DNA of 42,070 bases from Candidatus Parcubacteria bacterium (GTDB lineage Bacteria; Patescibacteriota; Minisyncoccia; Phycocordibacterales; CALRHW01), in the NCBI GenBank assembly GCA_009691505.1, contig SICJ01000002.1, positions 1 through 42,070 of the forward strand, in the 5' to 3' direction. Under the pieces are notes generated by a model. It saw only the letters and a list, made by a program, of their open reading frames with translations, did no database searches and was not told where the DNA came from. This document shows positions 3,446 through 41,219 of this stretch, in pieces. How positions within the stretch are numbered: the first letter of the stretch is position 1; each line of letters starts with the position of its first letter. The position numbers and the translations under genes were made by a program.

Positions 3446-3958
3446 TTAATTTTCAGGAGGCAGGTCTTGCACGTCCACCGCCGTGTCTATAAAAAGCACG
3501 CCATTTAAATGGTCAGTTTCGTGTTGGAAGATTTGCGCAAGAATTCCAGAACCACCTTTTGTAAAACGTTTTCCATTTTCATCGTATGCTTCCACCATTG
3601 CTTTTTGAAAGCGTTTCACTTTTCCGTATAGGTATCGCACACTGAGGCATCCCTCGTCCATCATTTTTGTAGATTTAGATAGTTTTGTAATTTTTGGATT
3701 GATAAAAACCATATCTTCGTATTTTTTAATATCCCCATCTTTTTTTTCCATACCAAAAACCTTATTTGATATCACAAAAATCCGCAACAGTTCTCCTATC
3801 TGTGGCGCAGCTATGGCAACACCGTCATCTTGTGACACGAGTGATTTTTTCATTGCGGAAATTATCTTTTGCACTTTTGCAGAAGTAATCTCTTTTACAG
3901 GCACTTCAAGAGATTTTTTTCTAAGCAAGGGGTCATTTTTTTGCAAAATTTTTGGCAT
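3446..3958 (-). CDS. def: Peptide deformylase
   Basis: The three PDF motifs are present: GVAIAAPQIG, EGCLS and HETDHL. Confidence 0.95.
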   Translation of the reverse strand: MPKILQKNDPLLRKKSLEVPVKEITSAKVQKIISAMKKSLVSQDDGVAIAAPQIGELLRIFVISNKVFGMEKKDGDIKKYEDMVFINPKITKLSKSTKMMDEGCLSVRYLYGKVKRFQKAMVEAYDENGKRFTKGGSGILAQIFQHETDHLNGVLFIDTAVDVQDLPPEN

Positions 3959-5896: not shown

Positions 5897-7420
5897 TTAA
5901 TTATCTCGCAAAATTTTTACTTTCGCACCGATACTACATAGTCTTTTTATGATATCTTCGTAGCCACGATTTATACTATATATGTTGCGAAGTATTGATT
6001 TGCCACTTGCCCCCAGCATTCCTATGAGAATAATAGCGCCAGGACGTAGAGCGGGCGGACAAATAACCTCCGCTGATTTCAATTTTGTCGGCCCAGTAAT
6101 ATATAGTCGGTGTGGATCTACGAGATTTGTATTTGCTCCGAGTTTGTCTATGTCCTTCATGTAAATTGCGCGCTTTTCATAAGCCCAATCGTGGATGAAA
6201 GTTGTGCCTGTCGCCTGTGTTGCAATGATTGCAAAAAAAGGAAGATTGTCCATGTTGAGTCCTGGGTAGGGTCGGCACTCTATTTTTTCTTCAAGGGCGG
6301 TGAGTTTGGATGGAAAAGTTGTGATGTCTACAAGGTCGGTGTATTCATTTAATGCTTTGTATTTTTCGCTTCTTTTATATTTGAACCCCATTTTTTCTAG
6401 TTTAAGTAATTCAATTTCCAAAAAATCTATTGGACAACGTTTGATGATGATAGAAGAATTTGTGACGATGGCTGCCGCAAGAAAAAACATAGATTCAATA
6501 GGATCTTCCATAAGATAATATGTGACAGGTGTATTTATATTTTCTACTCCATAAATAGTGATATTTGTAGTACCTATACCTTCTACCTTTACCCCACATT
6601 TTTCTAAAAATAGACAAACTTCTTGTCCCATATAATTTGCTGATGCAAATTTAATAACGGTCTTGCCTGGGATAAGCGCCGCCGCCATTATTGCATTTTC
6701 TGTCACGGTGTCTCCAGATTCATATAGCACTATTTCCGCAGGTCTTAGTTTTGATGACGATATTTCATAGTTATCTTTGTTTGTTTTTATATTTACACCA
6801 AGTTTTTCTAACGCGAAAAAATGAGGACGCACAGTGCGTGAACCCAGGTTGCATCCACCTGGTTGAGGAATCTTAAAATTTTTTAGGTTGTGGATAAGCG
6901 GTCCGATAAGCATAATAATACTTCGTGTTTTTCCCGCCGCAGCGCCGTCTATATTTTTTATTGCAAAAGTTTTTGGAGGTTTTATTTCTACGTCGTTGCC
7001 GTGCCACTTTACATTTACGCCGATACTTTCAAACACTTCAATCATTCTATACACCTCCTCTATTTTCGGGACGTTTTTTATTGTCGTCGTGTTGGTATTG
7101 AGCAGGGAAGAACAGAGTATTCCCATCGCTCCGTTTTTAGAAGTTTTAGTAACGATTTCTCCTGAAAGTTTTCTACCGCCCTCTATTTCAATATTTAACG
7201 CGCCAGTTGAAAGTGTGACGATGTCGCGATTGAGCGCGTCACTGATTTTTGAAATCATTTCTGTGGTCAGGTTTTGCTCACCTTTTTCAATACGCGCCAC
7301 AGCGCTTTGCGTTGTGCCGAGTTTTTTTGCAAACTCTGCTTGTGTAATTCCTCGTTCTTCGCGAAGCGTCTGCGCCAGTTTTCCTATGTGTGCAAATTTT
7401 TTGTTGGCATTTTTGGGCAT
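5897..7420 (-). CDS. murA: XRE-family HTH domain fused to UDP-N-acetylglucosamine 1-carboxyvinyltransferase (MurA)
   Basis: Residues about 10-66 (LREERGITQAEFAKKLGTTQSAVARIEKGEQNLT) form a classic Cro/C1 HTH. The rest aligns with MurA, including the catalytic-Cys loop PQPGGCNLGSRTVRPH. Confidence 0.88.
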   Translation of the reverse strand: MPKNANKKFAHIGKLAQTLREERGITQAEFAKKLGTTQSAVARIEKGEQNLTTEMISKISDALNRDIVTLSTGALNIEIEGGRKLSGEIVTKTSKNGAMGILCSSLLNTNTTTIKNVPKIEEVYRMIEVFESIGVNVKWHGNDVEIKPPKTFAIKNIDGAAAGKTRSIIMLIGPLIHNLKNFKIPQPGGCNLGSRTVRPHFFALEKLGVNIKTNKDNYEISSSKLRPAEIVLYESGDTVTENAIMAAALIPGKTVIKFASANYMGQEVCLFLEKCGVKVEGIGTTNITIYGVENINTPVTYYLMEDPIESMFFLAAAIVTNSSIIIKRCPIDFLEIELLKLEKMGFKYKRSEKYKALNEYTDLVDITTFPSKLTALEEKIECRPYPGLNMDNLPFFAIIATQATGTTFIHDWAYEKRAIYMKDIDKLGANTNLVDPHRLYITGPTKLKSAEVICPPALRPGAIILIGMLGASGKSILRNIYSINRGYEDIIKRLCSIGAKVKILRDN

Positions 7421-7468: not shown

Positions 7469-7601
7469 AAATCAAAACATTAATAAAAAGCCTGTGCTTT
7501 CAGAGCACGCGTAAAAATCTGCTGATTTTTCTGCTCCGCTCGGCGCCGACGCGCCTGCGCGAGTCTCTTCAAGCACAGGCTTTTTATTAATGTTTTGATT
7601 T
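7469..7601. repeat. Palindromic element A: perfect 31-bp inverted repeat around a 71-nt core with an AT hairpin and a GC hairpin
   Basis: 7469-7499 is the exact reverse complement of 7571-7601. Inner stems are AAAAATC/GATTTTT (7513-7530) and CGC-tc-GGCGC...GCGCC-t-GCG (7537-7559). Confidence 0.9.
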
Positions 7602-7652
7602 CTTTAAACATTTGTCAATCTTCCCAAACTCCCTTATGATATGCTTATCTTT

Positions 7653-8666
7653 ATGTCATTTTTCTCAAAAAAACTCGGTATTGATTTGGGAACCACAAGC
7701 ACCCTTGTGTATGTGCCTGGAAAGGGAATTGTCCTAAACGAGCCTTCTGTCGTTGCTATTTCTGAAGAAGACAACAGAATCCTCGCTATTGGTCTTGAAG
7801 CAAAAAATATGATCGGTCGCACACCTGAGAGCATTATTGCTTATCGTCCGATGAAAGACGGAGTCATTGCAGATTATCGTGTGACAGAAGCAATGCTTCG
7901 TTATTATATAAACAAAGCGCTCGGCAAGTGGAATTTATCAAAGCCAGAAGTGCTGGTGTCTGTGCCCGCAGGAGTCACATCCACAGAACGTCGTGCGGTC
8001 GTGGAGGCCGCTATTCGTGCAGGTGCAAAAAATGCTTATGTTGTAAAAGAACCGATTCTTGCAGCGATTGGTGCAGGGATTCCTATCCAAGAAGCGATGG
8101 GACACATGGTAGTAGATATTGGCGGAGGTACGACAGACGTCGCTGTTATTTCTCTTGGAGGAATTGTCGCAGCGACTTCTGTAAAATGTGCAGGTAATAA
8201 AATTGATTATGCGATTACTGATTACATTAAAAAACAATTCAATCTAGGTATAGGCGACAAAACCGCTGAAGATATAAAAATAAAAGTGGGCTCTGCTATT
8301 CCACTTGATGAAGAGCTTGCGGTGACGATAAAAGGACGAGATTTTGTGACAGGTCTTCCTCGTTCAATTGAAATTAAAACCAACGAAATAGTAAAAGCTA
8401 TCAACAAAGAACTTCGCGAAATCGTAAAAGCAATTAAAGATGTATTTCAAGATACTCCACCAGAGCTTGCGTCAGATATTATAGATAATGGAATTATTAT
8501 GACAGGTGGTTCATCACAGCTTCGTAACCTTCCAGATCTTGTTTATCGTCGCACAGGTGTAAAAGCCGTCCTTGCAGAAGACGCATTGTATTGTGTAGTG
8601 AAAGGGACAGGAATTGCCCTAGAGCATCTAGATGTATACAAAAAGAGTATTATTGCTAAGAGGTAG
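7653..8666 (+). CDS. mreB: Rod shape-determining protein MreB (paralog 1)
   Basis: Actin-fold motifs GIDLGT, VVDIGGGTTD and MTGGSS. I placed the start at the second ATG (MSFFSKKLGIDLGT); the ORF opens at 7641. Confidence 0.9.
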   Translation: MSFFSKKLGIDLGTTSTLVYVPGKGIVLNEPSVVAISEEDNRILAIGLEAKNMIGRTPESIIAYRPMKDGVIADYRVTEAMLRYYINKALGKWNLSKPEVLVSVPAGVTSTERRAVVEAAIRAGAKNAYVVKEPILAAIGAGIPIQEAMGHMVVDIGGGTTDVAVISLGGIVAATSVKCAGNKIDYAITDYIKKQFNLGIGDKTAEDIKIKVGSAIPLDEELAVTIKGRDFVTGLPRSIEIKTNEIVKAINKELREIVKAIKDVFQDTPPELASDIIDNGIIMTGGSSQLRNLPDLVYRRTGVKAVLAEDALYCVVKGTGIALEHLDVYKKSIIAKR

Positions 8667-8674
8667 AGTGGTGG

Positions 8675-8701
8675 TTGACAAATTTATTTTATTGGTATAG
8701 T
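8675..8701 (+). promoter_or_regulatory. Promoter of the unclassified RNA (TTGACA ... TGgTATAGT)
   Basis: TTGACA at 8675-8680 and the extended -10 TGgTATAGT at 8693-8701, directly after the mreB stop. Confidence 0.55.
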
Positions 8702-8707
8702 ATGTAA

Positions 8708-8997
8708 TAGACTGATCTTTTTTACTCGGAGTAGTGAAAGGTGGCGGTATTGCTATCCGACCTCACTTTACTGAATAGTCTGTGTTTTCAGAGTCTGCGT
8801 CTCATCGCATAGATTTTGACACAGACACTCGGTACTGAGACTCTACTCTCTGAAGCACAAGGAAAGGTTGTCGCCTGAAGATTGCCCATATGTGACCGCG
8901 AAACACCCCCTGTGCGCCGATCAGCCCCCCCCAGCCATTGTGCCATATACTCTTTGTCGGAAAAGAGATGGAAACACAACGGTGGGGGTTTTTCTTT
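8708..8997 (+). ncRNA. Unclassified structured RNA candidate, about 290 nt
   Basis: No plausible ORF. Visibly less AT-rich than the flanks. Helices: AGTGA-GGT-CGG/CCG-ACC-TCACT (8733-8767), TTCAGAG/CTCTGAA or AGAGTCT/AGACTCT (8787-8854) and GTCTG/CAGAC. The terminal long hairpin (about 8927-8988) is followed by TTTTTCTTT. Confidence 0.55.
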
Positions 8998-9016
8998 GGT
9001 GTATAATATTTAAATA

Positions 9017-9778
9017 ATGGAAGATCTCGCTCAAGTTTATAAAAAAACATCCAGTCTCCATCACGCTTATGTGATTGAGGGAAATCAAAAAAAAGATTTT
9101 GCAGGTCTGCTTTCGTTTTTGGAAAAAAGTGTTGGGTTTAAAACTCATGGTAATCTAGATTTTTATCACGAAAGTTTTGATTCTTTTGGTATTGATGAGG
9201 CTCGCAGGATTAAAGAGATGCAACAAAAAAAGCCTTTTACAGAAGGTGGAAAAAAAGTTTTTATTCTTTCTTTTAATTTTATTACGCGCGAGGCGCAAAA
9301 CTCACTTCTGAAAGTTTTTGAAGAACCTACTTCTGGAACACATTTTTTTCTTCTTGTGCCGTCAGCAGAAATTTTTCTGCCAACGGTACGTTCTAGAGTG
9401 GTGATTTTATCGCAAAAATATTCTGTTGAGGGAAGACATGGGAGTGATGGCGGGAGCGGGAGCAGGGAAATTGCCTACGGCAATTTCCCTGCCGACTTCT
9501 GCAAAAATTTTCTCAAAAGCTCGCCTAAAGTGCGCCTTGAAATGTTTGCAGAAATTATTGAAGAAAAAGATAAGGCACGCGTGATAAGTTTTTTAAATAA
9601 TTTGGAATCGCTACTTTTTCAAAAATGGAATAAAAATTTAAGCGTCGAAAAAACCACCGACAAAGCGGAAATTTTTAAACAGATTATCACTTGTAGAAAT
9701 TATCTTCACGACCGCGCGCCGAGCGTAAAAATGATTTTAGAACACATCACACTTGTTACTCCAGTTGTAATAAGTTAA
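9017..9778 (+). CDS. holB: DNA polymerase III delta' subunit (HolB-like), short form
   Basis: HHAYVIEG at the N-terminus and FNFITREAQNSLLKVFEEPTSGTHFFLL (the sensor/SRC region of clamp-loader subunits). Confidence 0.8.
   Translation: MEDLAQVYKKTSSLHHAYVIEGNQKKDFAGLLSFLEKSVGFKTHGNLDFYHESFDSFGIDEARRIKEMQQKKPFTEGGKKVFILSFNFITREAQNSLLKVFEEPTSGTHFFLLVPSAEIFLPTVRSRVVILSQKYSVEGRHGSDGGSGSREIAYGNFPADFCKNFLKSSPKVRLEMFAEIIEEKDKARVISFLNNLESLLFQKWNKNLSVEKTTDKAEIFKQIITCRNYLHDRAPSVKMILEHITLVTPVVIS
9462..9492. repeat. Perfect 14-bp stem with a 3-nt loop inside the holB coding sequence
   Basis: GCAGGGAAATTGCC-tac-GGCAATTTCCCTGC. It encodes ...SREIAYGNFPA... within a Gly/Ser-rich insertion and is preceded by the GGGAGC GGGAGC tandem. 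Confidence 0.9.
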
Positions 9779-41063: not shown

Positions 41064-41219
41064 TGATTATCAAGAGAGTGGCGAGAACACTGGTTCTAGG
41101 ACCCACCGGCAACCAATTAGAAATAATAAGGTGCTAAATCCAGCCAAAGTATTGCGAAAGCAATATTATGGAAAGATAAGACTAGTCATCTATCTTTCCT
41201 CTTTATGAGGAATTTTTTA
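41064..41219 (+). promoter_or_regulatory. SAM-I (S-box) riboswitch with terminator/antiterminator platform
   Basis: TTATCAAGAGAG...GGCAACC...GGTGCTAAATCC...AGATAAG matches the S-box core. The antiterminator is GGAAAGATA/TATCTTTCC. The terminator is TTCCTC-tttat-GAGGAA plus T6 (41196-41218). Confidence 0.88.

Follow-up and report, generated by a model that had tools for sequence, protein, structure and literature searches.

The stretch of DNA analyzed in this study, hereafter the window, comprised all 42,070 nucleotides of contig SICJ01000002.1 from a Candidatus Parcubacteria bacterium (assembly GCA_009691505.1), and corresponded to contig C10 of the genome designated G000 (0.47 Mb, 24 contigs, estimated to be 93.6% complete), whose closest named relatives were lake-derived Parcubacteria/Paceibacteria metagenome-assembled genomes (MAGs). 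In this window, a stand-alone mreB gene (7641-8666; PF06723, E 9e-133) is followed by a spacer of 350 bp and by holB (9017-9778; PF13177), downstream of which lie frr and the gene of an M50 protease (rseP). A preliminary description made from the letters of the sequence had regarded the spacer as less AT-rich than its flanks and as encoding a structured RNA of approximately 290 nt that is bounded by a promoter and a terminator and fits no known class. The compositional contrast was readily reproduced, with a G+C content of 0.47-0.53 at 8725-9024 against 0.33-0.38 in the flanks and 0.394 in the whole genome. As described below, the predicted transcript of 288 nt, its detection in lake metatranscriptomes, and its conservation at the same locus in related genomes supported the proposed RNA, and we are highly confident that this mreB-holB RNA is the genuine product of a stand-alone non-coding RNA (ncRNA) gene of a new family.

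The upstream edge of the spacer was occupied by a sigma-70-type promoter on the + strand (8675-8703), consisting of TTGACA (8675-8680), a 17-nt spacer, and TAGTAT (8698-8703), which scored 10 of 12 matches in the promoter scan. While the TGgTATAGT previously proposed to accompany this TTGACA was indeed present at 8693-8701, it would leave a spacer of 15 nt, and TAGTAT was the better -10 element. Based on the -10 spacing and on the alignment of the 5' ends of the family members, we inferred that transcription starts approximately 7 nt downstream of this near-consensus promoter, at G8710, the first base of the 5' motif GACUGAUCUUUUU (8710-8722, + strand), which is the local form of the family motif GAYCGRUCUUUGK. 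At the opposite edge, the minimum-free-energy fold contained a long terminator hairpin of 61 nt (8928-8988, + strand) having an inner hairpin at 8950-8967, and the U tract UUUUUCUUU (8989-8997, + strand) directly followed it; the long hairpin and U tract of the preliminary description were therefore real, and a simple terminator scan had missed the hairpin because its loop limit was 8 nt. The primary transcript was accordingly predicted to span 8710-8997. The mature RNA may be shorter, namely, approximately 225 nt without the terminator hairpin, or approximately 205 nt in the sister species G004 (a MAG recorded as CALRHW01, whose HolB is 88-89% identical to that of the window).

The RNA gene was tightly packed between its neighbors. 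Only 8 nt separated the stop codon of mreB from the TTGACA of the -35 element (window 8664-8680), and mreB had no terminator of its own, so that transcription of mreB has to continue through the RNA gene as far as its terminator, and the RNA body doubles as the 3' end of whatever transcript reads through from mreB. On the other side, holB had its own promoter (8999-9019, + strand), with the -10 element GTGTATAAT lying 8-9 nt upstream of the ATG at 9017. This promoter directly abutted the RNA terminator tail and was kept in all relatives examined, including those on contigs L074 and L076, which lack the RNA. No Shine-Dalgarno sequence was found for holB, and this, together with the close distance of 8-9 nt between its -10 element and ATG, implied a leaderless or near-leaderless holB mRNA.

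Words of this locus were found in four lake metatranscriptomes. Three of these runs (X21, X22, and X24) each yielded one discrete contig of 180-193 nt that covered only the mreB-holB RNA, supporting its transcription. The contigs, which showed depths of 28.9, 5.9, and 7.9, respectively, started at 8719, 8720, or 8734, ran to 8894, crossed the deletion characteristic of G004, and ended through GAUCAGCCCCUCCAG(CC) without extending into holB, and neither mreB nor holB contigs were found in these three runs (of four). For the same population, RNase P RNA reached depths of 563, 83, and 279, respectively; by this crude measure, the mreB-holB RNA amounted to approximately 3-7% of RNase P RNA and was well above the flanking mRNAs. 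Since DNA runs from similar lakes displayed even, low coverage over mreB, the spacer, and holB, the RNA signal was not attributable to DNA carry-over. The three clean contigs ended within 2 nt of one another at the foot of the terminator hairpin, reflecting either a mature RNA that lacks the hairpin or a failure of reverse transcription or assembly at this site. The depth of 377 in the fourth run (X23) was not used, as it came from a chimeric 542-nt contig, of which only 119 nt matched and which continued into unrelated sequence.

To what extent the spacer could encode protein was judged by comparison with G004, in which the same locus was 86% identical to that of G000 but differed by a deletion of 22 nt and an insertion of 1 nt. 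Both of these indels were present in all environmental variants aligned to the region. The preliminary description had seen no credible open reading frame (ORF) in the spacer; mechanical ORFs of 43-82 amino acids do in fact cross it on both strands, but the 22-nt and 1-nt indels interrupt every one of them, and thus none can be coding. The 22 additional nucleotides of G000 (window approximately 8885-8918) seem to have arisen by imperfect tandem duplication of local sequence (CCCAUAUGUGACCG / CCCCCUGUGCGCCG).

The + strand of the RNA folded 3.45 standard deviations better than its dinucleotide shuffles. The - strand also folded better than shuffles (z = -4.41), and hence folding energy alone cannot assign the strand. 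In the predicted + strand fold, the 5' strand of a closing helix P1 (CUGAUC, 8712-8717) pairs with its 3' strand (GAUCAG, 8919-8924), a pairing that was also recovered in a duplex test between the 5' and 3' regions. P1 would enclose a 5' domain (8726-8853, + strand), composed of an outer helix (8726-8736/8844-8853), a hairpin at 8740-8757, and a long hairpin at 8762-8839 with its apical loop at 8800-8805, and a more variable 3' domain (8855-8915, + strand), which has a hairpin at 8866-8886 and includes the 22-nt segment at approximately 8895-8916. The alternative pairing pointed out earlier was confirmed at the sequence level, as AGAGUCU (8790-8796) perfectly complements AGACUCU (8838-8844), and UUCAGAG (8787-8793) complements CUCUGAA (8848-8854); G004 carried no variation that probes these two alternative 7-bp pairings. 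In the consensus structure of G000 and G004, all 62 of the 62 predicted pairs were kept in both species, and pairing was preserved in every one of the four one-sided stem changes. These comprised a G-U to G-C change in hairpin 8740-8757, two one-sided changes in hairpin 8866-8886, and a change at position 8800, which converts a U-G to a C-G stem pair in the consensus structure; in the single-sequence fold, the changes at positions 8800 and 8804 both fall in the apical loop of the long hairpin. The one-base insertion of G004 falls in an internal loop of the 5' domain, and none of the differences between the two species conflicts with the predicted fold.

An Rfam 15 search of 8600-9060 returned no match, even at E<=10 with permissive filters, in agreement with the earlier statement that the RNA fits no known class. 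As for RNase P RNA (RF00010/RF00011), no match was found in the region, and the genome's own gene was located at C16:14915-15294 with 106.7 bits. The string GTGAAAGGTGGCGGTA (8734-8749), which had been said to recall a segment of RNase P RNA, was present, but we consider this a chance resemblance: it was absent from all other family members, and its sole outside look-alike (G010:C6:45081-45187) lay within a protein-coding ORF of an unrelated genome. ARAGORN placed the single transfer-messenger RNA of the genome at C20:27154-27554 and nothing in the region. The 6S RNA model (RF00013) matched neither the region (E<=10) nor the loci of nine relatives nor the whole genome, and the central bubble typical of 6S RNA was absent from the predicted folds of six family members, two of which were unbranched rods and four branched. 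Neither could the RNA be regarded as a riboswitch, a T-box, or a protein-binding leader of holB, as no cis-regulatory Rfam match was obtained and the interior was unalignable across the family; moreover, a separate holB promoter follows the terminator and is kept in relatives devoid of the RNA.

The signal recognition particle (SRP) was treated separately. The SRP RNA models (RF00169 and RF01854) matched nothing in the region or in the genome, and the small SRP RNA (RF00169) was found in 0 of 31 genomes of the order. The M domain of Ffh (PF02978) was likewise found in 0 of these 31 genomes, and the SRP54 GTPase domain (PF00448) gave weak partial P-loop matches, none of them full-length, those checked lying within PilB/PilT-type ATPases. 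The lack of any full-length PF00448 match implied that FtsY is missing as well, and a motif scan of all ORFs of G000 for SRP GTPases found none. SecY, used as a control, was recovered in 31 of the 31 genomes (approximately 1e-100), indicating that the search was sensitive enough for the SRP proteins. As both RNA and protein searches were negative, the reading of the mreB-holB RNA as SRP RNA was excluded. Judging from these homology searches, the entire SRP system (Ffh, FtsY, and SRP RNA) appears to be absent from G000 and its 30 relatives of the same order. We found nothing relevant on SRP loss in this group in the literature consulted, and its absence across 31 SecY-bearing genomes may be of broader interest than the RNA itself.

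The relatives of the RNA gene were reached through synteny, since sequence searches failed to retrieve them: blastn against 60 relatives detected G004 and a 20-nt match to the terminator tail in G007, a covariance model built from G000 and G004 retrieved nothing else when run against 200 genomes of the order, and HolB-based scans of genome and metagenome contigs gave, besides contig L033 of G004 (89%), relatives of <=41% identity. In most of the latter, for the part of their loci that was inspected, mreB and holB abutted or nearly did so. The genus of G000, represented by eight species (G000-G007), was the sole representative of its family among the genomes searched. A cassette of the same layout occupied the mreB-holB locus in seven of these eight species and in six further metagenome contigs. 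Thus, beyond G000 and G004, a spacer of 235-375 nt lay between orthologous mreB and holB genes in G002, G003, G005, G006, and G007, and the same layout recurred on contigs L077, L078, L080/L081, L082, L084, and L085, whose HolB proteins are 48-60% identical to that of the window. The RNA gene is therefore conserved in position across most of the genus. The cassette was single-copy in the G000 genome.

The spacer was missing in G001, and in other families mreB and holB abutted or nearly did so. In addition, three close relatives by HolB (66-75% identity, with only G004 being closer) had mreB-holB gaps of 14-91 nt. One of them, L076 (714-826; HolB 66% identical), retained a TTGACA box, a TGTGCGCG piece, and a GTTTTTCTTTGGTGTATAAT tail in its 91-nt gap, which appears from these remnants to be the deletion scar of the RNA gene. 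The existence of close relatives without the cassette implied that the gene was deleted repeatedly and is not essential. The RNA family thus belongs to a single genus-level clade within the Paceibacteria (Parcubacteria, candidate phyla radiation (CPR)), to which it is confined.

Comparison among the family members revealed which parts of the cassette are maintained. A promoter of the form TTGACA/TTGACT, a 16-17-nt spacer, and TAnnnT was recognized throughout the family spacers (among others in G002, G003, G005, G006, L078, L080/81, and L084), although it was unclear in G007 and L085. The predicted start, approximately 7-8 nt past the -10 element, coincides with the G of GAYCGRUCUUUGK; this motif is degenerate in G000 and L085, where it reads GAU(C)UUUUUU. 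In every family spacer, the body was G+C-rich and was followed by a long hairpin, a U-rich tail that was often exactly UUUUUCUUU, and the holB promoter. The tail UUUUUCUUU was shared by G006, L078, L080, and G007, and the junction between the terminator tail and the holB -10 element, UUUUUCUUUGGUGUAUAAU, was the best-conserved stretch. The window itself displayed the full set of family features, namely, the promoter behind mreB, the 5' motif in its degenerate version, P1, and a long terminator whose U5CU3 tail abuts the promoter of holB. Apart from the tail and the 5' motif, the lineages had no k-mer in common, and when subgroup A (G002, G006, L077, and L078) was aligned with MAFFT and RNAalifold, the 5' motif at the RNA end, P1, and the terminator aligned, while the interior did not. 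Global alignments compared with shuffles gave z values of 6-11 within subgroup A, 6.8 between G000 and G007, 3.2 between G000 and L080, and approximately 2 between G000 and subgroup A.

The closing helix was assessed in nine lineages by pairing the first 18 nt of each RNA with the 28 nt before its terminator in RNAduplex, with 500 shuffles as reference. The helix was better than in shuffles in eight of the nine lineages (p = 0.012-0.12), and in six of the nine, no interior window paired with the 5' end as well as the pre-terminator segment did. Where the 5' motif was alignable, the helices differed in a compensatory manner, as exemplified by CGGUC/GACCG in G002, CGAUC/GAUCG in L077, UGAUC/GAUCA in G000, and UCGAUC/GAUCGA in L084. 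The cores had G+C contents of 0.48-0.56, as against 0.39 for the genome, and their folding z values relative to dinucleotide shuffles ranged from -6.2 to +0.8, with 8 of 10 being below -1.8. Their predicted interiors were dissimilar, being unbranched rods of approximately 150 nt in G002 and L078, and three- or four-way junctions in G000, G006, L077, and G005. The interior of 100-250 nt is thus G+C-rich and folded, and is free to vary in sequence, length, and branching.

Stable RNAs that are protected from nucleases and often bound by protein are typified by paired ends, a long hairpin at the 3' side, and a U tail, and in RNAs conserved only in their basal stem, such as Y RNAs, protein recognition occurs there. 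The presence of the former features together with a conserved basal stem led us to favor a trans-acting RNA of the ribonucleoprotein (RNP) type or a regulatory RNA. In the mechanism that we tentatively propose by analogy with such RNAs, the 5' motif, closing helix, 3' hairpin, and U tail would constitute a basal module for recognition and stabilization, which would hide both RNA ends from nucleases and would probably be bound by protein, whereas the interior would serve as a variable, lineage-specific effector or scaffold. The RNA would act in trans and be built like Y RNAs and other small RNP RNAs, and its role would be accessory rather than essential, because several close relatives have deleted the cassette. 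This mechanism, considered by itself, is a possibility that we regard as less likely than not; the explanation as a whole, which joins it to the new ncRNA gene family, is the best available and seems to us evenly poised between right and wrong.

Several points weigh against this explanation. The metatranscriptome contigs carry no strand, so that the + strand was deduced from the orientation of the promoter and terminator, and abundance can be gauged only poorly from the depth of contigs. The ends of the RNA were placed by promoter and terminator logic and by assembled contigs rather than by mapped reads. The interior helices are backed only by the comparison of two very closely related species, which showed no compensatory change on both sides of a stem. 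The Fisher combined p of approximately 2e-6 for the closing helix is optimistic, since the lineages are related, and G007 showed no significant closing helix. Moreover, G007 (z = +0.8) and G006 (z = -1.1) folded no better than shuffles.

Among the alternatives, a base-pairing riboregulator was considered, in which exposed C-rich loops resembling an anti-Shine-Dalgarno sequence would repress G-rich or Shine-Dalgarno-like mRNAs in the manner of sX13, RsaE, and RoxS. CCCC words outnumbered GGGG words by 46 to 18 over 12 members, and C runs with an unpaired probability above 0.8 were predicted in G004 (apical loop CCUCCU), G002, G006, L077, L078, and G003; a weak, sub-threshold sX13 match also occurred in G003 (23.6 bits, E 0.81), and dispensability and fast evolution are typical of small RNAs (sRNAs). 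In the RNA of the window, however, the C runs were predicted to be mostly paired (unpaired 0.26-0.34), and the CCUCCU loop of G004 reads UCUCAU in G000, so the putative seed is not kept even between sister species. Furthermore, P1 sequesters the 5' end, which sets the RNA apart from most seed-type sRNAs, and no consistent complementarity to the 5' region of holB was obtained, with RNAduplex z values of -3 to +1.5 and with duplexfold proposing unrealistic long-range duplexes; the holB promoter lies only 8-9 nt from its ATG. We therefore regard riboregulation of this kind as unlikely. It is improbable, too, that the RNA is the by-product of a cis-acting module, which would terminate mreB and insulate or tune the holB-frr-rseP promoter through transcriptional interference, or would act as a stabilizing 3' untranslated region (UTR) of mreB. 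Such a module would explain why the position between mreB and holB is fixed in every cassette-bearing lineage, why mreB lacks its own terminator and has the promoter 8 nt after its stop, and why the terminator tail is fused to the holB -10 element at the best-conserved junction, and a free interior would be expected if folding and termination alone mattered. A plain terminator, however, needs no consensus promoter, conserved 5' motif, or closing helix, and L074 and L076 retain the same holB promoter without the cassette. Neither a conserved aptamer-like core nor an Rfam riboswitch or leader match was found, and holB read-through was lacking in three of the four RNA runs.

A divergent 6S-type RNA, sequestering the RNA polymerase holoenzyme through open-promoter mimicry, could account for an abundant, non-essential, fast-evolving RNA with paired ends in a genome where RF00013 detects no 6S RNA, and the unbranched rods of approximately 150 nt predicted for G002 and L078 would suit it. 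We nevertheless judge this very unlikely, because no large two-sided bubble was seen, the largest loops of the rods being 0x11 nt and 3x4 nt; the other members were multibranched, the closing helix measures merely 5-10 bp, no model match was obtained at E<=10 in the region or in the nine relatives' loci, and the depth was 3-7% of that of RNase P RNA. The least credible alternative is an accidentally transcribed, decaying remnant, derived either from a mobile element or from a partial duplicate of the RNase P RNA gene, which we take to be exceedingly improbable. The likeness of GTGAAAGGTGGCGGTA to the P10-P12 segment of RNase P RNA and the absence of the element from some relatives would accord with decay. 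Against this, RF00010 finds the true gene on C16 (106.7 bits) and nothing in the region, the string occurs in no other member and has its sole outside match inside the coding ORF of G010, and the single-copy element maintains its promoter, P1, and terminator in lineages whose HolB is 48-63% identical to that of the window; its expression is likewise contradictory to a remnant.

Further cassettes came to light in the same group of organisms. The G000 genome holds two ORF-poor, G+C-rich (0.45-0.48) cassettes on the - strand of contigs C2 (approximately 7596-8069; L086) and C23 (approximately 5923-6221; L087), which measure approximately 440 nt and 260 nt, have a TTGACA-17-TATAAT/TACTAT promoter and a terminator, and gave no Rfam match. 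The C2 cassette starts with UAGUUCUUUGAUG and ends with GGGGUUUUUCUUUUU, thus resembling the mreB-holB RNA; it went undetected in the four RNA runs, where the strain present is another one, of the G004 type. On L034 (CAZVFV01, a more distant Parcubacteria-type MAG deposited as 'uncultured Candidatus Saccharibacteria'), holB directly adjoins mreB, and the gap between holB and frr carries a different G+C-rich unit of approximately 165 nt on the opposite strand (3650-3860, - strand), in which a TTGACA-17-TAATAT promoter and a terminator accompany three hairpins whose loops are C-rich, again with no Rfam match. In the window outside the mreB-holB spacer, the Rfam 15 matches were two tRNAs and a SAM-I riboswitch (41064-41182, + strand), the latter at 54.4 bits and above the gathering score.

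That G000 carries at least two additional cassettes of similar design without Rfam matches, on C2 and C23, provides a lead toward a more general view. It is conceivable, albeit rather doubtful, that the mreB-holB RNA exemplifies a wider class of Paceibacteria RNAs that are strongly promoted, G+C-rich, and closed at their ends, and whose folded interior turns over rapidly. We would equally speculate, with the same reservation, that members of such a class keep their slot, promoter, basal helix, and CU-rich tail and act as lineage-specific RNPs or regulators in organisms that lack SRP and practice leaderless translation. To our knowledge, almost nothing is known about the ncRNAs of the mostly uncultivated CPR/Patescibacteria, and we found no description of the mreB-holB RNA in the literature consulted on CPR 6S RNA and sRNAs. 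With its conserved ends, free interior, and natural loss variants, it offers a tractable case for studying the roles of sRNAs in cells with genomes of approximately 0.5 Mb. It also warns annotators that G+C-rich, apparently 'empty' spacers in such genomes can be genes, although the practical impact will be modest until a function is found.

Finally, the mreB-holB RNA was compared with known RNA systems. DapZ and MicL of enterobacteria are sRNAs whose genes stand alone or are embedded in a 3' UTR, with their own promoter and the terminator of the upstream gene. The mreB-holB RNA shares with this type a promoter right behind the upstream stop codon and one intrinsic terminator serving both mRNA and sRNA, and is likewise lineage-restricted, dispensable, and fast-evolving; in contrast, it is longer and more structured (approximately 200-290 nt versus 55-90 nt), and its 5' end is locked in the closing helix rather than available as a conserved single-stranded seed. 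With Y RNA and YrlA, it has in common a basal stem of paired ends that holds the sole conserved sequence, a variable distal part, a U-rich 3' tail, and an abundant yet non-essential nature. On the other hand, the locus gave no Rfam Y-RNA match and no tRNA-like domain by ARAGORN, and no Ro/TROVE gene was found near it, a search that did not extend genome-wide; the likeness is hence an analogy of design and not evidence of membership. Like 6S RNA, the mreB-holB RNA is abundant and non-essential, has a sigma-70 promoter of its own and paired termini, is poorly conserved in sequence, and includes some rod-like members; the mreB-holB RNAs depart from 6S RNA in the lack of a central bubble, the short closing helix, the mostly branched folds, and the absence of a model match. 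Like orphan RNAs of the raiA/OLE/ROOL type, which were discovered through comparative genomics, the mreB-holB RNA is folded, ORF-free, and embedded in a conserved genomic context; whereas those RNAs keep their sequence cores over whole phyla, it keeps the basal module only, within one genus-level clade.

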